Origin: Syntrophales bacterium
GTDB lineage: Bacteria; Desulfobacterota; Syntrophia; Syntrophales; PHBD01
Direction: 5' to 3'
Length of the DNA: 64,000 nt
Assembly (NCBI GenBank): GCA_963668175.1
Contig: OY764159.1
Location: 288,001 to 352,000 of the forward strand
Shown here: piece by piece, positions 7,973-61,153 of the stretch
How positions within the stretch are numbered: the first letter of the stretch is position 1
How the letters are laid out: each line of letters opens with the position of its first letter
Notes under the pieces: generated by a model
Database searches by the model: none
Told to the model about the DNA's origin: nothing
Seen by the model: only the letters and a program-made list of their open reading frames with translations
Position numbers and translations under genes: made by a program

Positions 7973-8067
7973 GGAGCACATGTCCCTTATCTTTATGCCC
8001 AGCCTGAAGGCCGGATCGCGGCTTGCTTTTTTTCACAGGGCATCATAAAAGATCCATGGAGCTTGCG

Positions 8068-8526
8068 ATGTTGACGGACAAGGAAAAAAAGGTGGCCGCC
8101 TATATACAGAAAGACATCCCCCTCGTGGAAAGCCCTTTCGCGCAGGCAGCTTCCGAGCTGGGCATCCCCGAGAAGGAGATCATCGCGATCACGGAAGATC
8201 TCATGAAAAGGGGTATTATCAGGAAATTCGGCGCCATTCTCCGGCATCAAAAAGCGGGCTATACAAGAAACATCATGGTGGTCTGGGCCGTTCCGGAGGA
8301 CCGTTGCGACAAGACCGGCACCCTTCTGTCCGCCTTTCCTCAGGTAACGCACTGCTATCGGCGGACACCGCCTTTCGAGGGGAAATACAACATCTTCACC
8401 ATGGTCCATCTGCAGAGCGAAAGCGACACGATTATCGATACGCTTTCCCTGGCGGCGGGGATCGACGACTACAAGGCCCTTGCAAGCGAAGAAGAGTATA
8501 AAAAAAGCAGCATGGAGTACTTCTAA
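8068..8526 (+). CDS. ahbB: Siroheme decarboxylase subunit (AhbB/NirH-like, Lrp/AsnC fold)
   Basis: HTH-like N-terminus, [28 protein letters not shown] and YKKSSMEYF; adjacent to hemL. Confidence 0.82.
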
Positions 8527-8527
8527 T

Positions 8528-9811
8528 ATGGGATCGACATCGAAGGCGCTTTTTGAGAGAGCACAACAGGTCATACCGGGGGGCGTCAACAGCCCCGTCC
8601 GGGCGTTCAAATCCGTGAACGCCTCGCCGATATTCATTGAAAAAGCAGCCGGTTCACGCATTTACGACGTGGATGGTAAAGAGTATGTGGACTTTGTCCT
8701 GTCCTGGGGGCCCATGATCCTCGGCCATGCGAATCCGTTCGTCACGGCGGCGATCGGGGAGGCCCTCAAGGGAGGAACGAGCTACGGAGCCCCGACCGAA
8801 CGGGAAGTTGAACTGGCGCAGCTGATCACCGAGGCCTTCCCTTCCATCGACATGGTCCGTATGGTGAACTCCGGGACGGAAGCGGTCATGAGCGCCATCC
8901 GCCTGGCGAGAGGCTTTACCGGCCGGGACAAGATCCTGAAATTCGAAGGCTGCTACCACGGACACGCCGATTCCCTGCTGGTCAAGGCCGGTTCCGGCGT
9001 CGCAACGTTTGGAATCCCGGGCAGCCCCGGCGTACCCAAGGCATTGGCCGAACTGACCATCACGGTCCCCTTCAACGATGCCGACGCCTTCCGGCAGGCC
9101 GTCGCACAACACGGCTCCGACCTGGCGGCCGTCATCATCGAACCTGTCGCCGGGAATATGGGCGTCGTTCCTCCTAAACCGGGTTATCTCAAATCCATCC
9201 GGGAGCTGACATCGCAAAACGGCATCGTCCTGATCCTGGACGAAGTGATTACGGGTTTCCGTTTCCATTACGGCGGCTATCAGACCATAGCCGATATTCA
9301 ACCCGACCTGACCTGCCTCGGCAAGATTATCGGCGGCGGCCTGCCGGTAGGAGCCTTTGGCGGCAGGCAAGACATTATGGAGCAATTGGCCCCGGCCGGC
9401 AATGTCTACCAGGCGGGGACCCTGTCCGGAAATCCCCTGGCCATGGCTGCAGGCATCGCCACCCTGACAGCCCTCAGGGAGAGCGCCGACTACTACGAAC
9501 TTCTCAATAGAAAGGCCTTCAGTCTCTGCGACGACATGCGATCCGCCTTCGAGCGGAAGGGCCTTCCCGTACAGATCAACTTTGCCGGTTCCATATTTAC
9601 CCTGTTCTTTACGGACCGGGAGGTCGTCGATTATGCCACGGCCGCCATGAGCGACACGAAACTCTTTGCCCGGTATTTCGCCGGCATGCTGGAAAACGGC
9701 ATCAACATCGCGCCATCCCAGTTTGAGGCATCTTTCCTCTCGTTTGCCCATACGGACGAGGATTTCGAGAAGACCCTCGAAGCCTGCGACAGGACGCTGA
9801 AAAGCCTGTAA
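8528..9811 (+). CDS. hemL: Glutamate-1-semialdehyde 2,1-aminomutase
   Basis: [37 protein letters not shown] and [10 protein letters not shown] motifs. Confidence 0.97.
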
Positions 9812-10827: not shown

Positions 10828-13800
10828 TTATACCTTGAAAGCGGTCAGGATAAGGAACCTTGCCGGGGTTTCGGATTCGGGCTCTGCAACGTCGAAGCCC
10901 TCAGCGGTTAATATCGCCATAACCTCTTCGTGTGAACGGACCACGGGTTTTATTCCCAAGAGCCTGTTTCGCAAGGCACTCAGCGTATCCCGCCTTGATA
11001 AATCCGTCGAAGACGTAGCGCGCTCCCGGATCAATAACATCCCTCCCGGTGCCAGGGATTCCCGAATTTTCCGCAGCGTCAGGCTAAATTCCTCATCGGA
11101 AAGAAGGTGGATGACGTCAAGAAGCAGCGCCGTATCCGCACCGCTTGGAAGATTGTCCAACGCCGGTGCTTTTCCCTGCACGGCGACACCCTGCTTTCCT
11201 ATTACCCGCGACGCGAAGAGTACCCGCTTCTTTTCGGGATCGACGGCATGAACCCGGGCGGCCGGATAAAGTTCAAGGAGCCAGGCGCAGGCCAATCCGT
11301 AGCCACATCCTATATCAAGGATAAGCCGGGGCGCTTTCACGTATTCGGACAAACAGCCGTAAAGGGGATCGAAGCGCATCCTGAGCCAGGCATGAAGTCT
11401 CGGGGAGGCCTCCATATGCCGGTAGCGTACCATGACGCGCTTGCGGTGCCGTTTCGATGCGGGGACAAGGTCCTGCTCCGGCGGGCAATCGAGCGGCCGG
11501 TATATCCTTTTCATGAGGGGGGGAACGATGGCGATTGCTCCGAGGAAAGAATAGCCTATACCCAGCGCCAGGCCGATACCCACGCTGCGGAGGAGAACAT
11601 GTCCCGATATGGCCAGTACCCCGAATCCCAAAAATGTCGTGGCAAAGGACATAAAGACGGACAGCCTGATGAGGCCCAGCGAAGGATGGTACTCGTCCAG
11701 GTACCGTTGATAGGAGCGGACCAGATAGAGGGCATAGTCCGTACCCATGCCGATGATGACGACCGATACCATGATCATCGGAATGCCCAGGGGTTCATTC
11801 AGGAGATTCAATGTCCCGACGGTGCAGACGAGGGCGAAAACCGTCGGGGCAACGGCGATAAGGGTCAACGGCAAATCCAGGAGATAAAGAAACGCAACGG
11901 CCAGTGTCATGATGCCCACAATCAGGGCCACTTTCAGAAATCCCGAAAAGATAAACGCTCCCAACCTTTCGCCGAAGAATGTCGGATCGAAGACCTTCAC
12001 GTCGGATAGCGCTCTTAAACGCGTGAAGAAGGATACGGGACGATACTCCGGGCCGGGCGTCAGGGTTGTAAAGAATGAAAGACCCTGTCCGTCGTGTTTG
12101 CGGGCAATGCCCAGAAGACTGAAATACTGTTCGGGAACGCCGACTGCGCGGTATTCCCGTTCGGCCAGCATGCTCAGAAAGGGATTAAAGGCCCCGGGTC
12201 TGAAGCCCGACTCCCGGGCAGCCCGTTCTATGTCGGCGGTCAACGCCGATACGCGCTCGGAAGACCAGAATTCCCGCCAGTCCCGGAAATTTTGTCGCGC
12301 CCTCTCTTCGCCCGGGAACAAAAGTGACGGCACGAACGACGCGGACAGGACTCCGTTCGCCTCTTCCCGGTCTAGTTGGAACGCCAGCCGGTCCGCCCGC
12401 CGCTGCAGGTCGGCCACGTCGCCCCCTTCCTGAATAAGGAAAACACGATTCGCGATACCGCCCCAGACATCTTTGACCAGCTTCTCGGCAGCCACCGTCT
12501 GGGCGCTGATGCTGTTCATGGCGTTCAAATCGATGCGTATATCGGGCCTGGCAAAAAAGAGCATCACAAAGGCAAAAAAGAGTGCCGCCCATAATTTCCA
12601 GGGGTGTTCCGACGATGAAACGGCATTGACCATACGCTGCAGGGGAATGAAACCGTCCCGCCGCGCGGGCGGAACGGAGGGAAAAACGAAGGGATAAATC
12701 AAATGGACAAAAACGAACGTGAAAAACACTCCCAAAGCGGCGAACCAGCCGAGCTGGGAAAGGGCGGCAAAGCCGCCGAGGAACAGAAAGGCGAAGCTGA
12801 CGGCCGTCGTCAGCATGGCCAGGAGCCCCAGGGACCAGACTTCCTTCGTGGCTTCCAATCCATGCGTTTCATAAGGGCGGTCCAGAAAAAGCAGGTAGGC
12901 GATGCCGTAATCGACGGTGAACGATATGATGGCGCCTCCGAAACCGACGGCCAGCATGGAAATCGTCCGGTTAAAGAGGGAATAGACGAACAGGGCGGCG
13001 ATCGTCCCCGCAAACGCCGGAAGAAGTGCAAGCAATCCGATCAGCGGCCGGGGAAAACCGAGAATCAGGAGGATGGCAATGGCCAGGGTGGAAAAGATGA
13101 CGGCCTGGCGGGTGTCTCTCTTGGCGCTCGTTTCATTGTCCAGCGCGGCCCGATAAGCGCCGACAGGCGTCAAGATAAAGGCATCGCTTTGTCCGTAAGC
13201 GTGCGCCAATTCGCTTGTAATGCCGTCCATGACGGCAGTTACTTTGCGGGCATAGGCGGTATCCGCTGCCGGCACGGCAGGTTCGGCGACGATCAGGAGG
13301 TGTTTCTTGTCGGGGGAGATGATCTGGCCCCTGTACATGTCTATCTGCCGGGAAGGGGCCAGAGGAGCGAGACGGGCCATGACGATGTTCTTTAATCCCA
13401 GGGGGTCTTGAGCCGTGAACCGGGACTGGCCGATACCCTCCAGGCTTGAAAGCTGCGCGAAATTGGTTCGAACGGCGTCGCGGATGTGTCGGGAGTCAAG
13501 AAGCGGCAAAACGCGTTCTCGAAGGTCTTTGGCCGTAAAGAGAACGGTAAGGTGATTCACGACATACGCCATCAGTTCGGGAACGAGGGCATACTGATCC
13601 TCCAGGCCCACGCGCTTGAACAGACCGCTATCCCGGAGCCGCTTCTCGACCAACGCCCCCCCGTCGACCAGCCTGTCGATATCGTCGCCCCGATGGGCGA
13701 CGTCGATCACGATGCGGTCCTGGATGGGATGATTCCGGACGATGTAGCGGGCATCGGCAAGGACCGGATCGCTTTGCGGCAGGGAAGCGGTAAGGTCGAA

Positions 13801-13902
13801 ATCCAGCGACAGGCGTCCGACGCTGAGAGAAAACAGCGACGCGACGACGATGATGACCGCGACAACCAAAGGCCAGCGGATCGAATACCGACTCAAAAAC
13901 AT
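10828..13902 (-). CDS. MMPL/RND-family exporter fused to a C-terminal class I SAM methyltransferase
   Basis: Two TM bundles with VDY and TDY motifs and large periplasmic loops; C-terminal LDIGCGYG and LLDVIH motifs. Confidence 0.85.
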   Translation of the reverse strand: MFLSRYSIRWPLVVAVIIVVASLFSLSVGRLSLDFDLTASLPQSDPVLADARYIVRNHPIQDRIVIDVAHRGDDIDRLVDGGALVEKRLRDSGLFKRVGLEDQYALVPELMAYVVNHLTVLFTAKDLRERVLPLLDSRHIRDAVRTNFAQLSSLEGIGQSRFTAQDPLGLKNIVMARLAPLAPSRQIDMYRGQIISPDKKHLLIVAEPAVPAADTAYARKVTAVMDGITSELAHAYGQSDAFILTPVGAYRAALDNETSAKRDTRQAVIFSTLAIAILLILGFPRPLIGLLALLPAFAGTIAALFVYSLFNRTISMLAVGFGGAIISFTVDYGIAYLLFLDRPYETHGLEATKEVWSLGLLAMLTTAVSFAFLFLGGFAALSQLGWFAALGVFFTFVFVHLIYPFVFPSVPPARRDGFIPLQRMVNAVSSSEHPWKLWAALFFAFVMLFFARPDIRIDLNAMNSISAQTVAAEKLVKDVWGGIANRVFLIQEGGDVADLQRRADRLAFQLDREEANGVLSASFVPSLLFPGEERARQNFRDWREFWSSERVSALTADIERAARESGFRPGAFNPFLSMLAEREYRAVGVPEQYFSLLGIARKHDGQGLSFFTTLTPGPEYRPVSFFTRLRALSDVKVFDPTFFGERLGAFIFSGFLKVALIVGIMTLAVAFLYLLDLPLTLIAVAPTVFALVCTVGTLNLLNEPLGIPMIMVSVVIIGMGTDYALYLVRSYQRYLDEYHPSLGLIRLSVFMSFATTFLGFGVLAISGHVLLRSVGIGLALGIGYSFLGAIAIVPPLMKRIYRPLDCPPEQDLVPASKRHRKRVMVRYRHMEASPRLHAWLRMRFDPLYGCLSEYVKAPRLILDIGCGYGLACAWLLELYPAARVHAVDPEKKRVLFASRVIGKQGVAVQGKAPALDNLPSGADTALLLDVIHLLSDEEFSLTLRKIRESLAPGGMLLIRERATSSTDLSRRDTLSALRNRLLGIKPVVRSHEEVMAILTAEGFDVAEPESETPARFLILTAFKV

Positions 13903-15830: not shown

Positions 15831-16277
15831 ATGAAATTTCTCGATCGGCTGTTGGCAAAAAAACGGGATAAAGAAGAGCCGGCGGATGTCCTGACGCTGG
15901 CCAATCAGATCAGCACCCTCATTGACAAGACCTCCTGGGACATCTTTTCAACATATCGCCTGGAACTCCTTGGAGAATCCATAGCTTATATTGTCCCGGC
16001 CATCTGGGGAGCCAGAAAGGAAGGAGACCTCACTCCGCTGCAAAGAACGATCAATGATCATGTTGAGCCCATTATCAAAGAGATTTTCTCTTCCCTGGCG
16101 ATTCGAGGGATGGAAGCCCAACAGGAATTTGCCTTGAGTTTTCTCATTCGCGGCCTTATCATCTCGAAAATCACTTACATGATCGAGGCGTTTCGCAACA
16201 GGCTCAACGAGCAGGCCTTCGACGAGCAGAAGTTGAAAGACGCCCTATCCAACATCAAACCTCTCGGTACGGCATGA
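15831..16277 (+). CDS. Hypothetical helical protein
   Basis: 148-aa ORF with plausible composition filling the gap; no motif recognised. Confidence 0.7.
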   Translation: MKFLDRLLAKKRDKEEPADVLTLANQISTLIDKTSWDIFSTYRLELLGESIAYIVPAIWGARKEGDLTPLQRTINDHVEPIIKEIFSSLAIRGMEAQQEFALSFLIRGLIISKITYMIEAFRNRLNEQAFDEQKLKDALSNIKPLGTA

Positions 16278-16354
16278 CGGCAGGCCTTAATACCCCGTAC
16301 CGAAATTCCTTCATAACCCATTGCCTCCAACCAGCCATCGAGAATATCTATCGC

Positions 16355-16867
16355 CTATATTTCTTCGCAGCAATGCCCTCCCTTGGAACGGCAGCCATTC
16401 TCCTTGGCCTTCTCAGCCAGTCTCGTTTCTCTTCTGGCACGCGCTTCTTCGTTGCGGCGCCGTTCGTTATCCGTCTCCAGGATCAGGGGCGGTAACTCCC
16501 GGGGCCGGCCGTCCTTGTCGATGGCCACATAGGTCAGATAAGCCGACGCCGTATGGCACCGCTTGCCCGTGATGAGATTTTCCGACTCGACGCGGACGCC
16601 GACCTCCATGGATGTCCTGCCGACGTAATTTAAGCTGGCTCTCATGGTCACATAATCTCCGACATAGACAGGATAGTGAAAATCCAGTCGGTCTATGGAA
16701 GCGGTAACGGCATTCGATCTTGCATGGCGGATCGCAACGACGCCCGCAATCGTATCGATGAGTTTCATGATCACACCGCCATGGACATTGCCCGCAGGAT
16801 TGGCATCAAGGGGATTCATCTGCTGGGCCATGACGACACTGCTTTCCTGTACTGTCTTACTTTCCAT
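16355..16867 (-). CDS. Acyl-CoA thioesterase (HotDog, YciA-like)
   Basis: DANPAGNVHGG, AVTASID and GRTSMEVGV motifs. Confidence 0.92.
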   Translation of the reverse strand: MESKTVQESSVVMAQQMNPLDANPAGNVHGGVIMKLIDTIAGVVAIRHARSNAVTASIDRLDFHYPVYVGDYVTMRASLNYVGRTSMEVGVRVESENLITGKRCHTASAYLTYVAIDKDGRPRELPPLILETDNERRRNEEARARRETRLAEKAKENGCRSKGGHCCEEI

Positions 16868-16961
16868 CTAATAACTCCTTTGTAAAAAATGATTCATGGT
16901 AAATCATACAGGCAGATACGGCCATAGGCAACGAAAAATTATGGCCCTTCATCCTTGCGGC

Positions 16962-17000
16962 AAAAGGAAAGGGCCCCGTTGAAGGAACAGGGCCCTTTTC
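16962..17000 (-). terminator. Intrinsic terminator after the PanE-Kce fusion
   Basis: AAAGGGCCC...GGGCCCTTT inverted repeat followed by a T-rich tail on the minus strand. Confidence 0.65.
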
Positions 17001-17019
17001 ATTCCGAGATGACGTCTGC

Positions 17020-19020
17020 TTACTTTTTCAAGCCCAGGATTTCCCGGGTCTCATCGGGACTTGCCGGCTCAAAATCGAATTCGCGCATGATCCTGACCAT
17101 TTTTTCCACGAGTTCGCCGTTGTTTTTGGCGAAGACGCCCTTCTTTACAAACAGGTTGTCCTCCATGCCGACGCGGACATGGCTGCCCAGGAAAAGCCCC
17201 TGGGTACAGACGGGAAATTCATTTCGGCCGGCGCCGATGACGGACCATTGATAATTGCCCCTGCCGAAGATACGGTCGGCCGTCGTATTCAGACTGATCA
17301 GATCATAGGGGGTTGACTGGATCCCTCCCAGAATGCCCGTCACGAACTGCAAATAGACCGGCGGTTTCAGATAACCCGCCTGCAGAAGGTAGCCGCAGTT
17401 GTAGAGATGGCCGATGTCATAGACCTCCAACTCGGGCTTCGTTCCGTTTTCCGCCATGATGGAGGTCATTTTAAAAAGATCCGCAAACGTATTCTGGAAG
17501 ACATATCCTTTGGCCAGCTCCATCATGGCCCCTTCCCAGGGATATTTCAGTTCCGTGTATTTCTCGATCATGGAAAAGACGCCCCAGTTCATCGATCCCA
17601 GGTTGCACGATGCCAGCTCCGGTTTGAACCGGGGAATGACCGACGCCCGCTGTTCCACCGTCATGCCGGCACCGCCGCCCGTCGTGATGCAGATGATCAG
17701 GTCCTTGTTCTTCGCTCTTATCTTGTCGATGATCTGTTCAAAGACATTGAGATCCGCCACGGGCATACCGTCCTGGGGATTGCGGGCATGGATATGCACG
17801 ACGGCCGCACCGGCAGCGGCCGCATCCAAGGCGTTCTGGGCGATCTGATCGGGTGTTATGGGCAGATAATCGGACATGGATGGCGTGTGAATGGAACCCG
17901 TAATGGCGCAGGTCACAATCCGCTTATGGTACGGTATCTTGCTCTTGGCCGGCCGGGATGCAGGCGCCGCTGCGGCAGGTTTGGCGGCCGTTTCCGCCGG
18001 ACCATCGGGAATATCAGGCAGGACGAACATCTCCAGGTTGGCCATGGCCGGCTTCAATTTGCCGTCCTGGCAGGCGGTGACGATCTCCACGACTTTGTCG
18101 TTGACCGGCGTCTTCACCTTGGCCTTTCGTCCCATCTCCGCCACTTTCCCGTTGATCGTGTTGATTTCGCATGGCAGCCCTTTTTCCAGGTCCTGAAGCA
18201 TGCTCGCCTTAAGTGCCCGATGCGGACCGAAAGCCATCTGGTAAATCATGAACGTCTTCTGCAACTGCTGCTTGTTCTGGAAAGAAAGGATGCCTACGTC
18301 AACGCCCTGAATCGGCTCCGGTTTGATGCCGAGGGCGGATGTCACCTGGAGGCATTCATTGGCGATGTGGGCCACGCAGGCCAGGGCTTTCGGGTTATCG
18401 AGAATATCCCCATAGGTGCAGCCCAATGCTGCAGACATGCCGCTGAACGTAGAATTGACAAGGAGCTTGGTCCAACGGATGCCTATCAATTTATCGGTCG
18501 TGATGGGCACGCCGGCCGACTCCAGCACTTCCTTGACCTTCTGCAGCCGCTCCGTCATTTTGCCGTCCAGTTCCCCGATATCATAGGTCATTTTGTCCGC
18601 CGGGGACGTCAACTGCGACACGCCGGGGGCCATCCAGGTGGCTCCCCAGCCAACGGCGGCTCCGAGGGTTCTCTGCGCGCCGACGTATTCGGCTACCGCA
18701 TCTTCAGGCAACCCGTTCTGAAGGGTGAGAACGATGCTGTCCTTGTGCAGATGAGGAACGAGCGCCGTCAGGGCCGCATCATTGTAATTCGTCTTTACCA
18801 GGTACAAGACCAGGTCGAATGTCCCTTCCATTTGGGCGGGTAAAATCGCCTTGACGGGGACGGTCATTTCCAGAAATCCGGTAATTTGGGCGCCTTTTTC
18901 GTTCAGAGCTTTCACATGAACTTCATTGGCATCGACCAGCACCACATCACGACCGCCCTTTGTCAGCATGGCCCCAATAATCGTCCCCAATGATCCTGCA
19001 CCAACTACTGCAATCTTCAT
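17020..19020 (-). CDS. Fusion of a ketopantoate reductase-like domain (PanE/ApbA) and a 3-keto-5-aminohexanoate cleavage enzyme (Kce/BKACE, DUF849)
   Basis: N-half: GAGSLG, LQNG, WTKLLVN, SMLQDL...E..TING. Ala/Pro linker. C-half: TCAITG, HIHAR, ITTGG, RVGMED. Start ATG 19020 follows an AGGAG RBS. Confidence 0.9.
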   Translation of the reverse strand: MKIAVVGAGSLGTIIGAMLTKGGRDVVLVDANEVHVKALNEKGAQITGFLEMTVPVKAILPAQMEGTFDLVLYLVKTNYNDAALTALVPHLHKDSIVLTLQNGLPEDAVAEYVGAQRTLGAAVGWGATWMAPGVSQLTSPADKMTYDIGELDGKMTERLQKVKEVLESAGVPITTDKLIGIRWTKLLVNSTFSGMSAALGCTYGDILDNPKALACVAHIANECLQVTSALGIKPEPIQGVDVGILSFQNKQQLQKTFMIYQMAFGPHRALKASMLQDLEKGLPCEINTINGKVAEMGRKAKVKTPVNDKVVEIVTACQDGKLKPAMANLEMFVLPDIPDGPAETAAKPAAAAPASRPAKSKIPYHKRIVTCAITGSIHTPSMSDYLPITPDQIAQNALDAAAAGAAVVHIHARNPQDGMPVADLNVFEQIIDKIRAKNKDLIICITTGGGAGMTVEQRASVIPRFKPELASCNLGSMNWGVFSMIEKYTELKYPWEGAMMELAKGYVFQNTFADLFKMTSIMAENGTKPELEVYDIGHLYNCGYLLQAGYLKPPVYLQFVTGILGGIQSTPYDLISLNTTADRIFGRGNYQWSVIGAGRNEFPVCTQGLFLGSHVRVGMEDNLFVKKGVFAKNNGELVEKMVRIMREFDFEPASPDETREILGLKK

Positions 19021-19459
19021 ATCTCCTACCTCCCCCATGATCAATTTGCTAAACCTACAGGCCCCACGCTCACTCCGTGACGCCAGGGTTCTCCCGATCC
19101 CACATCACCCATCTTGCAGACTGCAAGAGGGGTCACCAAAATTATGAAACGGCCAGACTTTAAAACAGAAGAAGTACGGATACGGCCTTAAGTGGCAGTC
19201 GCCGTTCTGCAATGTAAAATAAATGTTGAAGGACGATCGATAGTGATCTTTGCTTCTGATCGCCTGAATCATAGGCTAATATATATCCTGTTAAAAAGCA
19301 ATTGTTGATGGATGGGCATTTTCTCATGCGCCGCATGCCCTGGCTGCATTACCGGTGACCGCGCAAATCTTCAGCCGGATCAGATGTTTGGTATTGTATT
19401 TTCCATAAATAGTGTGATAATTTACAGACTTTCTGGCACTGAACCCTGAGGAAAACGCC

Positions 19460-20626
19460 TTGCCCTTGAAATCGATGACGCAGATGCACCCTGAAAAACT
19501 TACTTGGACGGTCTCGGCCGAGGGACAACAGGGCGAGGCATGTACCGTTTTCCTCTCCGGCGATGTCGCTTTGAAAAGTATCCTGCAGATTCACTCCCGT
19601 CTATTGAGAATAACGGAAGATATAAAGCCGCAAAGCATTACCGTGGACCTCTCCGGGGTCCGCTATCTGGACAGCAACGGCGCCTTGATCCTGCTCAAGT
19701 ACCGGGACTCTCTGGAAAAAAGAGCGATACCCACACAATTCGTGCATATGACCGACGACGCCGCCAGGATATTCGGTCTTCTCGATTTCCGACACCTGAA
19801 GGCCGCTGCCGCACCCTATCCCGCAGATCATCCCGGTTTTTTCATCCGCGTCGGCGTTATAGGCAGACGCGCATATGCGGGCTTCGTTCTTTTAATGATA
19901 TTTGTCGGGGAAGTCATCAGCAGTTTGATATACTCCGCCCGGCATCCCCGCTCCATAAGATGGGACGCCGTCTTTTTGTACATGAAAAGGGCAGGCGTCG
20001 ACGGGCTCCCGATCGTCGGATTGATCAGTTTTTTGATCGGGCTGATCATGGCGTTCATGTCTTCACTTCAGTTGAGACAATTCGGAGCCAATATCTACGT
20101 TGCGTCACTCGTGGCGCTCGCCATTGTGAAGGAACTGGGCCCCATCATGACGGCCATCCTTGTCGCCGGCCGGTCCGGTTCTGCCTTCGCAGCAGAAATA
20201 GGCACCATGATGGTCAATGAAGAAGTGGACGCCTTAACGACCATGGGATTTGATTCAACCAGGTTTCTCGTTATCCCCAAGGTGCTGGCCTCTGTCGTTG
20301 TCGTGCCGATGTTGACCGTCTATGCCGATGTCATCGGTGTCCTGGGGGGACTTGTCGTCGGCGTCACGGGCTTGGATTTGACCTTTTCTTCGTATGTCAA
20401 ACAGACGATGTCCAGCATCAAGGTCTTCGATATCGGTTCAAGCCTTGTCAAGTCGGTATGCTTCGCACTACTTATTTCGGGAATCGTATGCCATCGCGGT
20501 TTTCAAGTGAGGGGCGGCGCCGAAGCGGTCGGGGAAGCGGCAACGAGCGCCGTCGTCTCTGCCATTTTCCTGATCATTGTGTGTGATTCCGCTTTTGCGA
20601 TTATGCTCCACTACATAAGGGCTTGA
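19460..20626 (+). CDS. MlaE-family ABC permease with N-terminal STAS domain
   Basis: STAS-like VDLSGVRYLDSNG; ELGPIMTAIL, AGRSGSAFAAEIG and EAVGEAAT motifs. Start uncertain. Confidence 0.9.
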   Translation: MPLKSMTQMHPEKLTWTVSAEGQQGEACTVFLSGDVALKSILQIHSRLLRITEDIKPQSITVDLSGVRYLDSNGALILLKYRDSLEKRAIPTQFVHMTDDAARIFGLLDFRHLKAAAAPYPADHPGFFIRVGVIGRRAYAGFVLLMIFVGEVISSLIYSARHPRSIRWDAVFLYMKRAGVDGLPIVGLISFLIGLIMAFMSSLQLRQFGANIYVASLVALAIVKELGPIMTAILVAGRSGSAFAAEIGTMMVNEEVDALTTMGFDSTRFLVIPKVLASVVVVPMLTVYADVIGVLGGLVVGVTGLDLTFSSYVKQTMSSIKVFDIGSSLVKSVCFALLISGIVCHRGFQVRGGAEAVGEAATSAVVSAIFLIIVCDSAFAIMLHYIRA

Positions 20627-54662: not shown

Positions 54663-55850
54663 TTACAGCATTTCGAAGATGCCCGCAGCGCCCATTCCGC
54701 CGGCGATGCACATCGACACCATGCCGCGTTTGGCCTTGCGGCGTTTCATTTCATAGAGAAGCTGGGCAGTGAGTTTGCCGCCGCTGGCTCCCAGGGGATG
54801 CCCCAGGGCGATGGCGCCGCCGTTGGGATTAATATCGGCCATCCTGTCCTCGATCCCGATTTTGCGGATCGAATAGAGGGCCTGGGAAGCAAAGGCTTCA
54901 TTGATTTCAAAAACATCGATGTCCTTGGACGTTAAACCCGCCATTTTGAGAACCTTGGGGATCGCATAGGCCGGCCCGATTCCCATCTCTTCGGGCTTGC
55001 AGCCGGCGACGGCATAATGGGTAAGCCTGGCCAGGGGTTTCACTCCGATCTCTTTGGCCTTCTCCGCACTCATCACAAGCGCAAAGGCGGCGCCGTCGGT
55101 CATCTGTGAAGAATTTCCGGCCGTTACGGTTCCACCGGCCTTGAAGGGCGATTTCAATTTGGCAAGGTCCTCCATCGTCGTCGGCCACCGCACACCGTCA
55201 TCCTCGGCAAACACGAATGTCTCGCGGACCCGCTTGCCGTTTTTCAATTTTTTATACTTGTAGGCGGTGATGGGAATGATCTCTTCCTTGAATTTGCCCG
55301 CCTTGATGGCCTCGAAGGCCCTGCGGTTACTTTCCACCGCGAATTTATCCATATCTTCGCGGGAAACGTTATAGTTTGCCGCCACGTTTTCCGCCGTATT
55401 ACCCATGGATATGTAAACATTCGGCATCGAGTCGAATTTCCAGCCGGGATTGGGGCGAAAGATTCCGCCGCCCATGGGAATATGGGACATCGTTTCACAG
55501 CCGCCGGCGATGATGACCTCCGACCAGCCTGCCCTTATTTTTGCCGTGGCATCGGCGATGGCCTGGAGCCCCGACGAACAGAAACGATTGATGACCATGC
55601 CGCAGACCTGCTCCGTTATTCCGGCGCCGACTGCGATGACTTTTCCCAAATTCATTCCCTGCTCGGCCTCCGGAAACGCGCAGCCGGCGATGACATCGTC
55701 GACATCTTCCGGCTTCAGGGCAGGAACCCTTGCCAGGAGACCCTTAACAACCTGAATCCCAATGTCATCCCCCCGGGTTGCCCCCAGACCGCCTCTCTTA
55801 TAACGTCCACCGGGACTTCTCACGGATTCAACGATTACAGCATCACTCAT
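54663..55850 (-). CDS. fadA: Acetyl-CoA C-acyltransferase (3-ketoacyl-CoA thiolase)
   Basis: NRFCSSG, NEAF, GHPLG and MCIAGGMG motifs. Confidence 0.93.
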   Translation of the reverse strand: MSDAVIVESVRSPGGRYKRGGLGATRGDDIGIQVVKGLLARVPALKPEDVDDVIAGCAFPEAEQGMNLGKVIAVGAGITEQVCGMVINRFCSSGLQAIADATAKIRAGWSEVIIAGGCETMSHIPMGGGIFRPNPGWKFDSMPNVYISMGNTAENVAANYNVSREDMDKFAVESNRRAFEAIKAGKFKEEIIPITAYKYKKLKNGKRVRETFVFAEDDGVRWPTTMEDLAKLKSPFKAGGTVTAGNSSQMTDGAAFALVMSAEKAKEIGVKPLARLTHYAVAGCKPEEMGIGPAYAIPKVLKMAGLTSKDIDVFEINEAFASQALYSIRKIGIEDRMADINPNGGAIALGHPLGASGGKLTAQLLYEMKRRKAKRGMVSMCIAGGMGAAGIFEML

Positions 55851-55941
55851 GGTTTTCCTCCTTCTTATGGATACAGTCAGTACGTTTCGGCCCGGTCTTA
55901 AATCTTCCCAAGGAAACGGGCCGTCCACTGAAAGAATAGGG

Positions 55942-58362
55942 TTAATTGCGTAAAGGCTTACCTGTATTCAGCATATGCATGATCCTGTCCTGGGTCTTCG
56001 TCTCACCGCAGAGGCTGAGGAACGCCTCTCTCTCCAGATCCAGAAGTTCCTGTTCCGCAACCAGCGTTCCTTCCGGGCATTCGCCGCCGGAAAGGATGTA
56101 AGCAACTTTGCGACCGATAAAACAATCATATTCGGAAGCGAATTTCCCATGCTTCATGTTGTAAAGAATCGCTTCGGCCATACCCATGAAGTTTTCACCC
56201 ATGACGGGGATCAGGACCTTTTTCGGGGGTTTATAGGACAGGGCCAGTCCAAGAACAAGCTGCTTGGCATCCCAGAGTTGCTGATCCCGGTTTAGGCTTA
56301 TCCTTTCCGTCTTGCGGATGTATCCCAGTTCCATGGCCTCGGCGGCGCTGGTGGCGACTTTCGCCGTGGCGATATTCTCGAAGGCCTTGGCGTAGAACGT
56401 CTGCAGATTCAATCCCGCTGCAATGAGTCCGTCGGGAATGCCTTCCGTCATGCGCACCGCCATCTCCTTGCACCCTCCACCGGCGGGAATGACGCCGACG
56501 CCGACCTCGACAAGGCCGATATAGGTCTCGCCGCATGGCTGGCAGCGGGCTCCGTGCATGGCCATTTCGCAGCCTCCCCCCAACGCCAGGCCGGCCGGAG
56601 CGGTAACGACCGGTTTCGAGAGGTATTTCATCCTCATATTGGCGTTCTGGAATCCCTGGGTCAGCTGTTCGAGGACATCCCAGTCTCCCTTCTGGCAGGC
56701 CATCAGGACTTTAAAGATATTGGCGCCGGCCGAGAAATTCGACGCATGATTGCCGACAACCATGCCGACGAAGTCCTTTTCGACGATGTCGCAGCTGTCG
56801 AACAGCATCTGGACCATGCCGTCATCGACCGCATTCATCTTCGTATGGAATTCGAGGCAGGCGACACCGTCGCCGATATCGATGAGGCTGGCGCTCTGGT
56901 TCTTCTTGACAACCTTGTTTCTCTCCTTCAGTGAAGGCAGGAGGATGATCCGGGGATTCTCACCCAGTTTCACATAACCCTTGGTCTCGAAATCGTAATA
57001 ATACAGTCCGTCTTCCTTCTTCGCATAGAAGGAGTCGAAACCTTTCTTCAGCATTTCCTCGACCTTCTTCGGCACCTTCTTCTTCAGCTTTTTCATGACA
57101 TCGACGACCGCCTTGACGCCGATGGCATCCCAGGTCTCGAACGGGCCAAGCTGATGGTTGTAGCCCCATTTCATGGCATTGTCGATGCCGACGATATTGT
57201 CGCAGATCTCGGGTACACGGTTGGCCGCGTAGATGAAATTGTTGCAGAGATATTCCCGGACATAATCCGAAGCGGCATCCGTGCCGAAAAAGAGGGTTTT
57301 CGCCATGGCGGCGACGCCGTCGTCGCTCTTTTTCTTGGCCAGGGAGACCGATTCAAATTTAGGTTTCGTCGTCGGAGCATATTCCAGGGTGTTATAATCG
57401 ATGGCCGTCTTGACGCTCTTGCCTTTAGCGTCTTTCGTCTTCTTATAGAAACCCTGTTTCGTCTTGTTGCCCAGCCACTTCTTCTCAATCATCTTGTTCA
57501 TGAAGTCGAGCGGGATGAACGTGTCGCGGGACTCGTCGTCGGGAACTGCATCGTACAGATTTTTCATAACGTGATGCCCGGTATCGAGCCCTACAAGATC
57601 GAGGGTGCCGAAGATGGCCGTCCCCGGCCTGCCGACCGCCTTGCCGATAATGGCATCCACGGCCTCGACGGACAGGTTCTTCTCCACCATGAGCCGGATG
57701 GCGTTGGCGATATCGAAAACGCCAATACGATTGCCGATAAAGTTGGGAACGTCCTTGCAGATAACCACGCCCTTACCGAGAACGCGTTCACAAAAGTCCA
57801 CCATGAAATCGACGACGTCCTTCTTGGTCTCTTTACCGGGAATGATTTCAAGGAGTTTCATATAACGGGGCGGATTGAAAAAATGCGTCCCCAGGAAACG
57901 GTCTTTCAGTTTCTTGCCGAAATTCGCCGAAATGTCCGATATGGGAATACCGGATGTATTGGTAGAGACGATACAGGTCGGCTTCACGATCTTTTCGACC
58001 TTGGCGAAAAGCTCCTGTTTGATCTTCAGATTCTCGATGACGACCTCGCATATCCAGTCGACATCCGCGAGCCAGTTCAAGTTGTCCTCGAAGTTGCCGA
58101 TCGTGATCATCGAGGCGTTTTTCTTCGTATAGAAACTCGCCGGCTTGGATTTTGTCACCCCGGCCAACCCATTGGCGGCAAAACGGTTCCGCCACGCCGG
58201 GCTCTTCTCCGTCAAACCCTTCTTTTTGTCATCCTCAGTAAGCTCGAAGGGAATGATATCAAGCAGATAGCACTCGATTCCCGCATTGGTCAAATGTGCG
58301 GCAATCGTGGCACCCATGACGCCCGCGCCTAAAACAGCTGCTTTTTTTATCTCATACGACAT
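55942..58362 (-). CDS. fadN: 3-hydroxyacyl-CoA dehydrogenase / enoyl-CoA hydratase (FadN-type architecture)
   Basis: N-terminal GAGVMG, STNTSG, HFFNPPRY; C-terminal FSAGAN, GGGCE, GLVEVGVG. Confidence 0.9.
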   Translation of the reverse strand: MSYEIKKAAVLGAGVMGATIAAHLTNAGIECYLLDIIPFELTEDDKKKGLTEKSPAWRNRFAANGLAGVTKSKPASFYTKKNASMITIGNFEDNLNWLADVDWICEVVIENLKIKQELFAKVEKIVKPTCIVSTNTSGIPISDISANFGKKLKDRFLGTHFFNPPRYMKLLEIIPGKETKKDVVDFMVDFCERVLGKGVVICKDVPNFIGNRIGVFDIANAIRLMVEKNLSVEAVDAIIGKAVGRPGTAIFGTLDLVGLDTGHHVMKNLYDAVPDDESRDTFIPLDFMNKMIEKKWLGNKTKQGFYKKTKDAKGKSVKTAIDYNTLEYAPTTKPKFESVSLAKKKSDDGVAAMAKTLFFGTDAASDYVREYLCNNFIYAANRVPEICDNIVGIDNAMKWGYNHQLGPFETWDAIGVKAVVDVMKKLKKKVPKKVEEMLKKGFDSFYAKKEDGLYYYDFETKGYVKLGENPRIILLPSLKERNKVVKKNQSASLIDIGDGVACLEFHTKMNAVDDGMVQMLFDSCDIVEKDFVGMVVGNHASNFSAGANIFKVLMACQKGDWDVLEQLTQGFQNANMRMKYLSKPVVTAPAGLALGGGCEMAMHGARCQPCGETYIGLVEVGVGVIPAGGGCKEMAVRMTEGIPDGLIAAGLNLQTFYAKAFENIATAKVATSAAEAMELGYIRKTERISLNRDQQLWDAKQLVLGLALSYKPPKKVLIPVMGENFMGMAEAILYNMKHGKFASEYDCFIGRKVAYILSGGECPEGTLVAEQELLDLEREAFLSLCGETKTQDRIMHMLNTGKPLRN

Positions 58363-58447
58363 AGTTCTCCTCCTCTTCATTTCTTGTCCGACAGGCACCG
58401 GTCACGCAACTGACGGCGGTATCTGCCGGTCATAGGGTGACAATGCA

Positions 58448-60313
58448 TTAAGATGTAAAGGACTCATCAGCGATTTCGATGGGTGTCCTGTCGCCGAACT
58501 TGATCGATTCACACCGCGATTTTACGGTCGCCAGGGATTCCGAGGCAAAGAACTTCGCCGAGGCGATTTTACCCGCGTAGAAAGCAACCTCGGAATTGGT
58601 GTGAATCAGAGAACGCTGTTTGCCAATGGAATCTTCAGCGCCATTTTCCTTATAGATGGCTTGCAGCTTTTCTTCCGCAATGACGGCAGCCTGCATAAGC
58701 AGCCAACCGCCGACCACGTCGCCGAAGACGTCCATGAAGGGCGATGCATTCAAAATAGGCATCAGGAAGCCCGAGCTCTTGCCGAGCTGACCGAACGTCA
58801 TGGTGAGATCGACCAGGGCATTGCCTGCTTCTTCCAGGAACGCCGCAGACTTCTTCAACGGCTCCATAGCCTTTGCCTTGGCGATCGTATTCAGAATTTC
58901 ACCGGCCAGGTTCATCACGTTGGCACCCTTGTTAGAACCCAGTTTCCGTCCGACCAGATCGAGACACTGAATGCCGTTGGTTCCTTCGTAAATGGTCGTG
59001 ATCTTGCAGTCCCGCAGATACTGTTCGACCGGGTATTCGGAACAGTAGCCATAGCCGCCATAAACATCCATGGCCTTTGAACAGACTGTCATAGCGTTAT
59101 CCGATATCCAGGCCTTGGTGACCGGAATGAGCAATTCGGCCAATCCGAGCCATTTTTTCTTTTCTTCTTTTGTCTTGGCACTCTCCGCCATGTCCAGGTA
59201 TAGGGAAGTCAACAATCCAATAGCCCTCATGGCTTCAACCCGCGCTTTCATCCAGAGCAGATCGCGCCTCACATCGAGGTGCTGTATAATCGGAACGGCT
59301 TTGGCGTCGGGATTCTTCATCTCCCAGACGGGAATGCTCTGAATCCTCTCTTTTGCATAGGCGACGGCATGTTCATACGCCGCCGTGGCGGTTCCCAGGG
59401 CCTGAAAGCCGACTTCCAGCCGCGCTTCATTCATCAACTGGAACATCACGCGCAGGCCTTCGCGTTCCTTGCCCAGGAGTTCGCCGATGCAGTTGCCGTC
59501 TTCGCCGAAATTCAGAACGCACGTCGCGTTCCCTTTAATACCCATCTTGTGCTCGATATTCCCCGTCTTGACATCGTTGAACTCGCCGAGACTGCCGTCA
59601 TCCTTCACCCGATATTTGGGAACGATGAAGATGGAGATGCCGCCCGTTCCGGCAGGATCTCCCTCAATGCGGGCCAAGACCGGATGGACGATATTGTTGG
59701 TGAGATTATGATCGCCGCTGGAAATGAAGCACTTGGTTCCCGTGATGCTGAAAGTACCGTCCGGAAGACGTTTGGCCGTCGTCTTGAGGGATCCGACGTC
59801 GCTGCCTGCCCCCGGCTCGGTCAGGCACATGGTGCCTCCCCATTCACCGGCATACATCCGGCTCATATACTTGGTTTTTTGTTCTTCCGTACCGAAATTC
59901 TCGATCAACGCTGCGGCCCCATTGGTCAAGCCCGGATACATAATGAAAGGGTAATTGGCAGCCTGAAAAAATTCCATGCAGGCATTGGACATCACGGCGG
60001 GCATGCCCTGTCCGCCGACTTCCGGCGAACGCATGCAGCAAAGCCACCCTGCTTCGACAAACAGCTTAAAGGCGTTATGGAAGCTCTCGGGTACGGATAC
60101 CTTGCCATCCTTGAAAGTACATCCCTGGTGGTCTCCTTCAGCATTGATCGGAGCCAGCACGTTTACGGACAATTTCTCGGCCTCATTGAGCATCATCAGC
60201 ACGTCGTCTTTCGAAAACGCCGAGTACTTATCGGTTTCAAACAGTTTTTCGATACCCAACTGTTCGAAAAGCACAAAGTGTTGATCTCTCAGGTTAACCA
60301 ACAAATTACTCAT
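58448..60313 (-). CDS. Acyl-CoA dehydrogenase (long form)
   Basis: MCLTEPGAGSD, GTKCFIS, EHKMG, GGYGY and IYEGTN motifs. Confidence 0.95.
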   Translation of the reverse strand: MSNLLVNLRDQHFVLFEQLGIEKLFETDKYSAFSKDDVLMMLNEAEKLSVNVLAPINAEGDHQGCTFKDGKVSVPESFHNAFKLFVEAGWLCCMRSPEVGGQGMPAVMSNACMEFFQAANYPFIMYPGLTNGAAALIENFGTEEQKTKYMSRMYAGEWGGTMCLTEPGAGSDVGSLKTTAKRLPDGTFSITGTKCFISSGDHNLTNNIVHPVLARIEGDPAGTGGISIFIVPKYRVKDDGSLGEFNDVKTGNIEHKMGIKGNATCVLNFGEDGNCIGELLGKEREGLRVMFQLMNEARLEVGFQALGTATAAYEHAVAYAKERIQSIPVWEMKNPDAKAVPIIQHLDVRRDLLWMKARVEAMRAIGLLTSLYLDMAESAKTKEEKKKWLGLAELLIPVTKAWISDNAMTVCSKAMDVYGGYGYCSEYPVEQYLRDCKITTIYEGTNGIQCLDLVGRKLGSNKGANVMNLAGEILNTIAKAKAMEPLKKSAAFLEEAGNALVDLTMTFGQLGKSSGFLMPILNASPFMDVFGDVVGGWLLMQAAVIAEEKLQAIYKENGAEDSIGKQRSLIHTNSEVAFYAGKIASAKFFASESLATVKSRCESIKFGDRTPIEIADESFTS

Positions 60314-60409
60314 AACCAACCTCCTTCTCTCTTGAAGTAAAACCGTTGCCTATTCGGGGTACGACGACTGCCCCATCTCCTCAGTTATCGCCGATCGAAC
60401 CGGTCGGCG

Positions 60410-61045
60410 CTATTTTCTGCCTTGAAGTCCCTGAATGAAGATGTTCAAACCCGCATTGACCGTGCTGCGGATTCTCTCCTCCCGCAACGTGGCCGGTCCG
60501 GTAAATAAATAAAGCGAGATGACACCGTTGAGCATTCCCCATAATGCATTCCTGCTTTGCCGCAGGTTGGTTGAACGGGGGAATTCTCCTTTGTCGATAC
60601 CGTCCTGAAAGATCTTCTCGAAGATTGTCACCGTCTTATTGGTCATATTAACGGCACTGTTATGAAGTCCGTCCGGGAGGTTCATCTGATCCGTATTGAG
60701 CATAAAAGCCATGAAGATGCGGAAGAGCTCTTTTTCGTTAAGGAAAAAGTCGATATAGATATTGGCCAGGCGTTTCAGGGTGTCCGACGCCTGCTCCTCG
60801 AATTGCAATAAATCATTTATTTTACGATGAAATTTGTCAATATCATTAAGGAGAATATGGGTATAGATTTCTTCTTTGCTTTTGAAATAGAGGTATACGG
60901 ATCCTTTGCTCAGTTCGGCTTTCTGGGCAATGTTATCAACGGTAACGGCCTTGAAACCTTTTTCGAAGAAAAGCTTTCTGGCAGCCTTTAGGATTGCTTG
61001 TTTTCTGTTCTCTTTTTCACGTCTTCGTCTTTCTTCAAGTCCCAT
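60410..61045 (-). CDS. TetR/AcrR-family regulator
   Basis: HTH segment ILKAARKLFFEKGF...SKGSVYLYFKSKEE. Confidence 0.93.
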   Translation of the reverse strand: MGLEERRRREKENRKQAILKAARKLFFEKGFKAVTVDNIAQKAELSKGSVYLYFKSKEEIYTHILLNDIDKFHRKINDLLQFEEQASDTLKRLANIYIDFFLNEKELFRIFMAFMLNTDQMNLPDGLHNSAVNMTNKTVTIFEKIFQDGIDKGEFPRSTNLRQSRNALWGMLNGVISLYLFTGPATLREERIRSTVNAGLNIFIQGLQGRK

Positions 61046-61153
61046 AGATCGTCCTCGGCATGCTCTGATGGCAAAGGGCTGGCAACTGGACACCTCCTCT
61101 TCGGAAGCTGTAATGTCTTGATAAAGTGAGATAATTTAAGACGTGTCCGAATA

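Follow-up and report, generated by a model that had tools for sequence, protein, structure and literature searches.

Organization of the fused gene

The DNA examined here, hereafter the window, is a stretch of 64,000 nucleotides from a Syntrophales bacterium (GenBank assembly GCA_963668175.1, contig OY764159.1, positions 288,001 to 352,000 of the forward strand). On its minus strand lies a gene that joins a PanE/ApbA-like oxidoreductase, the family of ketopantoate reductase (KPR), to a cleavage enzyme for beta-keto acids (BKACE, or DUF849). It was listed as a single open reading frame (ORF) at 17020..19044 counted from the first TTG. The ATG at 19020 is the likely start codon, as it is preceded by GGGGGAGGTAGGAG and all orthologues begin with MK(I/T)A(V/I)(V/I)GAG at the equivalent Met. 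Translation from this ATG gives 666 aa with no internal stop. Pfam identified ApbA at residues 3-141 (E 1e-28, 100 bits), ApbA_C at residues 179-316 (E 6e-28, 98 bits) and BKACE (PF05853) at residues 367-664, a match to positions 2-274 of a profile of 274 (E 2e-103, 345.8 bits against a cutoff of 24.8). An earlier account of this DNA made from its sequence, the preliminary description, had reported one uninterrupted frame holding an intact PanE-like domain, a linker and an intact DUF849 domain. This stands, and the motifs it quoted are all present: GAGSLG (residues 7-12), WTKLLVN (183-189) and SMLQDL (273-278) in the N-half, and HIH (409-411), ITTGG (445-449) and RVGMED (616-621) in the C-half. 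The linker sequence PDGPAETAAKPAAAAPASRP occupies residues 338-357. The features of the gene are as follows.

17020..19020, minus strand: fused gene, 666 codons plus stop (stop codon 17020-17022); ORF translation, Pfam, full-length orthologues 76-96% identical
19023..19036, minus strand: purine-rich putative ribosome-binding region GGGGGAGGTAGGAG upstream of ATG 19020; sequence, with the start backed by orthologue N-termini
18010..19020, minus strand: N-domain, residues 1-337, PanE/ApbA-fold oxidoreductase, predicted NAD-dependent; Pfam, NCBIfam, KPR alignments, AlphaFold2/Foldseek
17926..18009, minus strand: linker, residues 338-365, Pro/Ala/Lys-rich, variable in sequence and length; fused-protein alignment, Ka/Ks
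17023..17925, minus strand: C-domain, residues 366-666, BKACE TIM-barrel; Pfam, alignments to 3LOT, 3E49, 3E02 and 8RIO/8RIP
16961..16999, minus strand: terminator-like hairpin GGGCCC...GGGCCC with a T-rich tail, 21 nt past the stop; sequence and pattern scan (stem 16988-16973), a consensus match only

The hairpin suggests that the fused gene ends its own transcript. An Rfam scan of positions 16000-20000 found nothing near any gathering score, and sigma-70 promoter-like sites were not above shuffled sequence (3 versus a mean of 2.1). A full-length AlphaFold model of the fusion, computed from a 7-sequence alignment, had a mean predicted local distance difference test score (pLDDT) of 38.7, and a domain-domain docking prediction, run without controls, scored 0.00 against a mark of 0.32, which speaks neither for nor against contact between the domains.

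Conservation of the fusion

A word-indexed protein search returned 29 proteins, among them six clusters of full-length proteins (662-668 aa, 76-96% identity) and three fragments that hold domains of both halves. An exhaustive search of 1.84 billion representatives gave 16,661 matches at E<=1e-3; among the best 150 of these, the junction was spanned by two, the fragment P0031 (81% identical) and the distant P0106 (687 aa). The uninterrupted fused ORF was also found in 10 of 49 related loci, which come from different genome assemblies. Variation among seven fused proteins, both indels and substitutions, is confined to the linker at about residues 338-358. Ka/Ks lies at 0.05-0.10 in the N-domain and 0.02-0.10 in the C-domain; the linker, at 0.05-0.43, exceeds both domains in most pairs. 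Ks is saturated in comparisons with the window copy, and four closer pairs lie at Ks 0.2-1.4. Both domains are under strong purifying selection.

P0106 shows the ApbA+ApbA_C+BKACE fusion a second time, in a very distant protein (28-33% identity). It retains HxH and R-x-G-x-E-D, carries Val at the position of the catalytic Glu532 and is without the TTGG motif, so that its BKACE-like half may have a different chemistry.

Distribution and origin

The comparison of domain architectures and neighbourhoods proposed in the preliminary description was made on loci from one genome per GTDB species, scanned with the peptide patterns AVGWGATW (N-domain) and PWEGAMM (C-domain). Architectures of the resulting 49 loci were assigned by ORF calling and phmmer, where N-like denotes a homologue of the N-domain.

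Fused single ORF: 10 loci of 49
N-like and BKACE genes on the same strand: 19 loci of 49
N-like gene only, with at least 2.5 kb on both sides: 11 loci of 49
N-like gene only, near a contig edge: 8 loci of 49
BKACE only (Smithella, L011): 1 locus of 49

The pair is thus fused or adjacent in 29 of the 49 loci. Seventeen of the split pairs overlap or lie at most 218 nt apart, and the other two have one gene in between. The order is N-then-C in 15 split loci, comprising all ten from Syntrophales together with Flavonifractor, Oscillospiraceae, Lachnospiraceae and Fusobacteriaceae, and C-then-N in the four from Spirochaetaceae and Defluviitaleaceae.

In a tree of the N-domain (55 rows), the 11 fused sequences formed one clade with an SH-aLRT (approximate likelihood-ratio test) support of 99, and the basal lineages were split pairs. 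The C-domain tree (48 rows) supported the fused clade at 86, or at 99 with the Smithella BKACE as its sister. Because the fused clade is monophyletic in both trees and the basal N-lineages are split, we conclude from these phylogenies that the fusion arose once, within Syntrophales.

Three loci bear individually on this history. The Smithella metagenome-assembled genome (MAG) encodes a standalone BKACE (L011:7998-8924), 78% identical to the C-domain and sister to the whole fused clade, which could be the unfused ancestor type or a product of secondary N-domain loss; genes for a MaoC dehydratase, an acyl-CoA ligase and an acyl-CoA dehydrogenase precede it. The only fused gene outside Thermodesulfobacteriota-type MAGs, in a Bacillota MAG (L009:6116-9989), lies directly downstream of a DDE transposase gene, and this adjoining transposase suggests horizontal acquisition from Syntrophales. 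At L001 the halves differ in their nearest relatives, the N-domain grouping with the L003 group (Ks 0.24) and the C-domain with the window and L002 (Ks 0.79 to L003), a pattern that suggests recombination near the linker.

The N-domain

An AlphaFold model of the N-domain, based on a 51-sequence family alignment, reached a pLDDT of 96 and a predicted template-modelling score (pTM) of 0.91. Its Foldseek neighbours were a Thermococcus ketopantoate reductase and NAD-dependent D-mandelate dehydrogenases, with target-normalised template-modelling (TM) scores up to 0.90 and 24-28% identity; E. coli KPR was more distant (TM 0.83, 18-19% identity). By this model the N-domain has a genuine PanE fold. 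The catalytic positions Asn102, Lys185, Asn189, Ser273, Asp277 and Glu285 are each at least 90% conserved in the 51 family members, and the N-half looks catalytically competent. The catalytic Glu had at first been placed directly after SMLQDL; alignment to solved KPRs moves it to Glu285, in the motif CEINTING.

Model-based annotation of the domain is uneven. The NCBIfam subfamily model TIGR00745 (apbA_panE) is passed with a score of 180 against a cutoff of 141, but no KPR equivalog model of NCBIfam reaches its cutoff (best 139 versus 371; others 136 versus 500 and 124 versus 252). The fused protein is publicly annotated as 2-dehydropantoate 2-reductase, and the ESM Atlas matches of the N-domain are only automatically named ketopantoate-reductase clusters. 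No pantothenate genes occur among the annotated neighbours in the window, the related loci or the plasmid loci described below.

An acidic residue at the end of strand beta-2 of a Rossmann fold indicates NAD use. Asp30 holds this position in 46 of the 51 family members, and the five most distant rows carry x-Arg. E. coli KPR binds NADPH through an Arg. On the strength of Asp30, of the general Rossmann-fold rule and of the NADPH-binding Arg of the E. coli enzyme, the N-domain is predicted to use NAD, which would fit an oxidative role.

The subfamily further carries an insertion of ~18 residues (~236-268) that solved KPRs do not have. It ends in His267-Arg268-x-x-Lys271, just ahead of the carboxylate-binding SMLQD motif. 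Lys/Arg271 and Glu279 are present in all 33 BKACE-linked proteins and in 3/3 homologues from cultured organisms, and are lost in six of the 11 informative solo N-like genes. Because all six fall in an Actinomycetota clade, this loss counts as one evolutionary event and is weak evidence. Two of these six loci, L026 and L029, have genes for thiamine pyrophosphate-dependent enzymes two genes downstream.

The C-domain

Over its whole length the C-domain can be aligned to three DUF849 structures, 3LOT, 3E49 and 3E02, as well as to BKACE15 of Paracoccus denitrificans (8RIO/8RIP; 269 bits), with which its catalytic and metal residues are identical. The metal motif is complete (His409, His411, Glu620, Asp621). 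By analogy with Kce, the BKACE of lysine fermentation, we take His409, His411 and Glu620 to be the Zn ligands. Glu532 aligns with E171 and Arg616 with R254 of BKACE15 (8RIO); replacement of E171 is reported to abolish activity, and the role of R254 is likewise described (PMC11961710). The C-half, too, looks catalytically competent.

The top NCBIfam model for the C-domain was NF053538, 3,5-dioxohexanoate:acetyl-CoA transferase, at 392.9 bits, below the cutoff of 430. The BKACE partners of PanE-like genes score 386-432 on this model, and only that of L017 passes the cutoff. The Kce model NF052387 fell well short (237 bits versus a cutoff of 382). Glu14 of Kce binds the 5-amino group of its substrate, and the triacetate acetoacetate-lyase (TAL) of Clostridium scatologenes, CsTAL, has Trp16 at that position, as stated in PMC10470551. 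Mapped via a Kce-like paralogue aligned to 2Y7D, the Kce-Glu14 position is occupied by Ile377 in the fused protein, and BKACE15 also has Ile there. The BKACEs found with PanE-like genes are of two kinds, Ile/Val-His (BKACE15-like) and Trp-Pro (Kce/CsTAL-like), neither of them charged at this position. They match BKACE group G1, described as 'hydrophobic and non-charged polar' in PMC4922564 (Table 7, second-hand for the groups of Bastard et al. 2014).

Placed among the BKACE subgroups by its active-site residues, as the preliminary description had proposed, the C-domain is of the BKACE15 type. The confirmed substrates of BKACE15 are uncharged C5-C6 beta-keto acids, including 3,5-dioxohexanoate (PMC11961710). 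Two other assignments were rejected: a Kce or carnitine-type BKACE, given the uncharged Ile377 and the models below cutoff, and a CsTAL-type triacetate acetoacetate-lyase, given Ile377 instead of Trp.

The two genes as neighbours in other genomes

Gene calls in the loci followed a greedy longest-ORF rule that sometimes chose antisense ORFs, so that neighbour counts are lower bounds. In Syntrophales the operon runs PAS histidine kinase, LuxR-type response regulator, GntP/CitMHS-like permease, a dehydrogenase of the 3-hydroxyacyl-CoA dehydrogenase (3HCDH) family, and then the PanE-like and BKACE genes, fused or split. Members of the permease family were counted at 14 loci and those of the 3HCDH family at 13; this 3HCDH is closest to carnitine-dehydrogenase models, below their cutoffs. 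Six of the ten fused loci (L003, L004, L005, L006, L008 and L010) have parts of the operon directly upstream of the fused gene; these parts are absent at L001, L002, L007, L009 and the window. The window copy stands outside the ancestral operon, and its own context says little.

Outside Syntrophales, the two Defluviitaleaceae loci L043 and L049 flank the split pair with genes for CoA-transferase A/B and a thiolase (acetoacetate salvage), to which L043 adds a short-chain dehydrogenase/reductase (SDR) and Bcd/EtfAB, and L049 a Liv-type ABC importer and a LysR regulator. In Flavonifractor, Oscillospiraceae and Spirochaetaceae the pair is accompanied by sigma-54 activators that carry PAS domains, and Spirochaetaceae L040 is a minimal module with no other dehydrogenase. 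A distinct arrangement was seen at L045:6287-11117 and L046:6285-11143, where genes for a metallo-beta-lactamase (MBL)-fold hydrolase, a 212-aa protein, the PanE-like protein, a degradative NAD-type 3-hydroxy-3-methylglutaryl-CoA reductase (TIGR00532, 346 versus 260) and the BKACE follow one another, with a sigma-54 activator nearby. Flavonifractor carries a dense cluster of two PanE-like genes and three BKACE paralogues (L041:4254-10824, L044:881-7450). Two of these paralogues resemble Kce and carry Trp where Kce has Glu14, the residue also described for CsTAL; within 8 kb there is neither a phloroglucinol reductase nor a cyclase-family gene.

The pair also occurs on annotated plasmids of cultured bacteria. 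A tblastn search of 72,556 plasmid records gave 517 with a match, of which six cover at least 80% of the query (four Paracoccus denitrificans, two Priestia). On plasmid 1 of P. denitrificans PD1222, genes for an SSF sodium:solute symporter, a PanE-like protein (annotated 'ketopantoate reductase family protein') and a BKACE follow each other with overlapping stops and starts, beside a divergent AraC regulator gene. The Priestia order is LacI, BKACE, PanE-like, GntP permease. No further dehydrogenase lies within the Paracoccus or Priestia modules. The PanE-paired BKACE of P. denitrificans is not the crystallised BKACE15 but a paralogue. The usual companions of the pair are a transporter for carboxylates and a regulator. 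Both accompany the dehydrogenase and BKACE in the Syntrophales operon, Paracoccus and Priestia, and salvage genes do so in L043 and L049; the window has the fusion only. The preliminary description had regarded the system as suited to energy-limited anaerobes. Because the aerobic P. denitrificans and the Priestia plasmids carry the same pair, it is not an anaerobe-specific adaptation.

Another partner was found on Bacillus mycoides plasmids, where a 46%-identical PanE-like gene starts 18 nt after an acetoacetate decarboxylase gene (Pfam ADC, 280 bits); on plasmid p232 (L053:6243-8035) the two are accompanied by a divergent LysR regulator gene. This ADC and PanE-like pair is possibly a route from a 3-hydroxy acid to a ketone. 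Among cultured organisms, the BKACE nearest to the C-domain (60% identity) is encoded on a Peribacillus asahii plasmid (L052:2965-9056). There is no PanE-like gene at this locus, and the BKACE lies in an aromatic-degradation-like cluster with an MhpA-like hydroxylase, an FAH-family hydrolase, a VOC dioxygenase-like protein and an MBL-fold hydrolase.

Because the pair recurs as neighbouring genes in several phyla, the Rosetta-stone pattern, the functional coupling of the two halves supposed in the preliminary description is strongly backed.

Proposed function

We propose, with a probability of roughly 0.5, that the N-domain interconverts 3-hydroxy and 3-keto acids and supplies the fused BKACE with its substrate. 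The proposal is made because the PanE-like subfamily recurs beside beta-keto-acid enzymes (two BKACE types and ADC) and is the sole dehydrogenase in several modules; activity at C3 is what we infer from this context. The preliminary description had pointed to a mismatch of chemistry between a PanE half acting on 2-keto acids and a BKACE half acting on 3-keto acids. The mismatch is real for characterised PanE enzymes, but it is softened for this subfamily by its repeated pairing with consumers of beta-keto acids, acetoacetate decarboxylase included.

Under this proposal, the N-domain would be a PanE-fold NAD+-dependent dehydrogenase that oxidises an uncharged 3-hydroxy acid of ~C5-C6 to the beta-keto acid. 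The C-domain, a putative Zn-dependent enzyme of the BKACE15 type, would then transfer the acyl part of this labile intermediate to CoA from acetyl-CoA, releasing acetoacetate and an acyl-CoA with no ATP spent. Candidate substrates are 3-hydroxy-5-oxohexanoate (giving triacetate), 3-hydroxyhexanoate, 3-hydroxyvalerate and 3,5-dihydroxyhexanoate. Two adjacent genes of an older operon were joined once in Syntrophales, and the fusion would keep both activities at 1:1 and close together, shielding the beta-keto acid from spontaneous decarboxylation. The architecture, the intact catalytic residues, the single origin, the purifying selection and the recurrent pairing of the genes are observed; step order, specificity for the 3-position, cofactor, substrate class and any channelling are predictions.

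A bolder and rather unlikely extension would make the PanE-like subfamily an unrecognised class of 3-hydroxy-acid dehydrogenases with D-(R) specificity, distinguished by Asp30, the His267-Arg268-Lys271 insertion and Glu279. With BKACE15-type partners it might provide a widespread ATP-free entry for free 3-hydroxyalkanoates, such as C5-C6 polyhydroxyalkanoate monomers or 3-hydroxy-5-oxohexanoate. In Syntrophales it would stand beside an (S)-specific 3HCDH, so that both enantiomers could feed one BKACE, and the fusion would channel the unstable beta-keto acid.

Several observations weigh against the proposal that the N-domain makes the BKACE substrate. The characterised PanE-family enzymes among its structural neighbours all act at C2 (ketopantoate, D-mandelate). 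In the ancestral Syntrophales operon a 3HCDH-family dehydrogenase, a type known to feed BKACEs, lies directly upstream of the pair; it could supply the beta-keto acid, leaving the PanE half to do something else. Eleven informative loci carry the N-like gene without a BKACE. Among its annotated neighbours in the window, the fused gene has no transporter, regulator, second dehydrogenase or acetoacetate-salvage gene. The scan patterns bias the 49-locus sample towards this N-like subfamily, so that the sample is not an unbiased census, and the trees are quick LG+G4 maximum-likelihood searches with SH-aLRT support only, in which the deeper branches of the C-tree are unresolved.

Of the alternatives, the one that survives best reverses the order of the steps. 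Another dehydrogenase, in Syntrophales the 3HCDH, would make the beta-keto acid, the BKACE would cleave it, and the PanE half would reduce the acetoacetate to 3-hydroxybutyrate with NADH, removing an inhibitory product and making the overall conversion redox-neutral. The preliminary description had offered both roles for the PanE half, and both are kept here as the two leading models. Under either of them the N-domain would be a PanE-fold enzyme that acts at C3. BKACE15 is reported to be inhibited by acetoacetate, 1.45 mM of which halves its activity (IC50); at 13 loci the gene immediately upstream of the pair or fusion is the carnitine-dehydrogenase-like 3HCDH; acetoacetate is common to both partner enzymes as the product of BKACE and the substrate of acetoacetate decarboxylase, and the NAD-type site with Asp30 would suit NADH equally well. 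However, a second dehydrogenase that could form the beta-keto acid is missing from the Paracoccus, Priestia and Spirochaetaceae L040 modules, and the import of free beta-keto acids as substrates is unlikely. The Defluviitaleaceae loci, moreover, appear to handle acetoacetate by CoA-transferase and thiolase, and the window, L001, L002, L007 and L009 have no 3HCDH gene nearby. We regard acetoacetate reduction as a possible but doubtful role.

The N-domain might instead be an ordinary C2-specific KPR or D-2-hydroxyacid dehydrogenase that serves a non-adjacent step or pantothenate synthesis, the fusion providing co-regulation only. Passing the apbA_panE model, the conserved KPR catalytic residues, the nearest structures (KPR and D-mandelate dehydrogenase, TM up to 0.90) and the public annotation all agree with this. 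The reading is weakened by the failure of every KPR equivalog model to reach its cutoff and by the lack of pantothenate genes beside the annotated genes of the window and related loci. Identity to solved KPRs is 18-28%, the subfamily has its own insertion with an H-R-x-x-K motif by the carboxylate-binding Ser, and the neighbours are transporters, catabolic-type regulators and beta-keto-acid enzymes. An ordinary C2 enzyme is improbable.

We consider it very improbable that the system runs in the synthetic direction, condensing an acyl-CoA with acetoacetate to a longer beta-keto acid and acetyl-CoA, with the N-domain reducing the former to an exported hydroxy acid as a fermentation product. The CsTAL reaction was measured in reverse (PMC10470551), and a permease and regulator cannot tell import from export. 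Yet the regulators (PAS histidine kinase/LuxR, sigma-54 with PAS, AraC, LacI, LysR) and salvage genes are typical of inducible catabolism, and no biosynthetic context was seen. Finally, an assembly, frameshift or gene-calling artefact is excluded for the fusion family because ten independently assembled genomes and six full-length protein clusters share the uninterrupted ORF, with a linker that stays in frame at variable length and selection on both halves.

Relation to known systems

The proposed combination of an oxidation and an acyl transfer follows an established logic. L-carnitine dehydrogenase with BKACE, deoxyribonate dehydrogenase (SDR) with BKACE (Price et al., preprint 10.1101/205583), and Kdd with Kce of lysine fermentation form ATP-free two-step modules that oxidise a 3-hydroxy or 3-amino acid and then transfer the acyl group to CoA, and their operons likewise include a transporter and a regulator. 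The partner dehydrogenases in these modules belong to the 3HCDH, SDR or Kdd families. The phloroglucinol pathway of C. scatologenes is a further parallel (mBio 2023, PMC10470551): the hydroxy-acid dehydrogenase TfD yields 3,5-dioxohexanoate, which a BKACE, TAL, converts with acetyl-CoA to acetoacetate and an acyl-CoA, and thiolase and CoA-transferase genes lie nearby, as at L043 and L049. According to the same source, TfD and TAL are encoded by separate genes, TfD is a 3HCDH-family enzyme and not a PanE protein, and CsTAL is Kce-like with Trp16, unlike the BKACE15-like Ile377 of the window protein. Unlike in the TfD/TAL pathway, phloroglucinol reductase and cyclohydrolase genes are absent from the window and the related loci examined. 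A phloroglucinol pathway was rejected for the window cluster, as the window holds neither an SDR phloroglucinol reductase (PGR) nor a DPGC/cyclase-family gene. The acyl-CoA route that the preliminary description had called undescribed is therefore already known in its logic from Kce, carnitine, deoxyribonate and phloroglucinol catabolism.

The halves themselves have close and distant counterparts. BKACE15 (8RIO/8RIP/9HNF) agrees with the C-domain in its catalytic and metal residues and also in having Ile-His at the specificity position, but it is a standalone homotetramer (Nat Commun 2025, PMC11961710), to which the window enzyme adds a 365-residue N-terminal extension of dehydrogenase and linker. 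PanE/ApbA KPRs and D-mandelate dehydrogenase (5HWS, 5AYV, 5X20, 3WFI, 2OFP) share with the N-domain the fold (target-normalised TM 0.8-0.9), the Rossmann GxGxxG, the catalytic Asn/Lys/Glu and the SxxxD motif. The N-domain differs from them in sequence (18-28% identity), in having Asp30 and not the NADPH-type Arg, in the extra ~18-residue insertion, and in being fused to or beside beta-keto-acid enzymes, not pantothenate genes, whereas known KPR-family members act at C2. Fusions of BKACE with pathway neighbours already exist, as in the name of NCBIfam NF052389 and in P0019 (519 aa), an independent dehydrogenase fusion to a same-clade BKACE, in which the BKACE is N-terminal to an SDR, the reverse of the order seen here. 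BKACE is prone to fusing with a neighbouring pathway enzyme, a dehydrogenase included.

A search combining PanE and BKACE terms found, within the literature open to it, no characterised fusion, no PanE-family BKACE partner and no C3-acting PanE-fold enzyme, in line with the preliminary description, which knew of no such architecture among characterised enzymes; a search on the Paracoccus gene identifiers found nothing. Dehydrogenase and BKACE modules are already known; new are a partner from the PanE family, its covalent joining to BKACE in Syntrophales and the wide spread of a gene pair so far unrecognised. If the proposed function is correct, it would assign a role to a large protein group now labelled '2-dehydropantoate 2-reductase' or 'ketopantoate reductase family protein', widen PanE-fold chemistry from 2-oxo to 3-oxo acids, and define a new catabolic module, built on BKACE and spread over syntrophs, gut Firmicutes, spirochaetes and aerobic soil bacteria. 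The natural fusion would then be a single-polypeptide catalyst from hydroxy acid to acyl-CoA without ATP, and would interest pathway engineers, since synthetic CO2-fixation designs already make use of BKACEs. The three-gene operon of P. denitrificans, with the identifiers PDEN_RS22575, RS22580 and RS22585, makes the question testable in a tractable organism.

Surroundings of the fused gene in the window

Downstream of the fused gene lies one further enzyme gene of possible relevance.

16355..16867, minus strand: 4HBT/YciA-like acyl-CoA thioesterase, 170 aa, with its own putative ribosome-binding site; Pfam 4HBT, NCBIfam YciA below cutoff

A 71%-identical thioesterase is encoded two genes downstream of the fused gene in L002 and in none of the other nine fused loci, so that an accessory function in the system is tentatively possible. 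An apparent N-terminal extension of this thioesterase, suggested by tblastn, has stop codons inside it and was rejected as an ORF-calling artefact. Upstream of the fused gene, a Mla transporter operon is transcribed divergently, and the rest of the window is ordinary chromosome, with SMC, FtsY, the dcw cluster and a beta-oxidation operon.

Three minus-strand regions of the window are noted for themselves. The ORF at 10828-13902 encodes 1024 aa, of which only the last ~170 residues match a known family, class I methyltransferase, and the first ~850 have no Pfam match at E<=1e-5. Two adjacent ORFs at 7993-9751 (222 and 365 aa), with no Pfam match at the same threshold, are flanked by formiminotransferase-like and lipid A acyltransferase-like genes. 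The beta-oxidation operon at 54663-61093 encodes a TetR/FadR-like regulator, an unusually long acyl-CoA dehydrogenase of 623 aa, a FadB-like protein of 818 aa with the dehydrogenase domain first and the hydratase second, and a thiolase, and is consistent with a fatty-acid-oxidising organism of the Syntrophales type.

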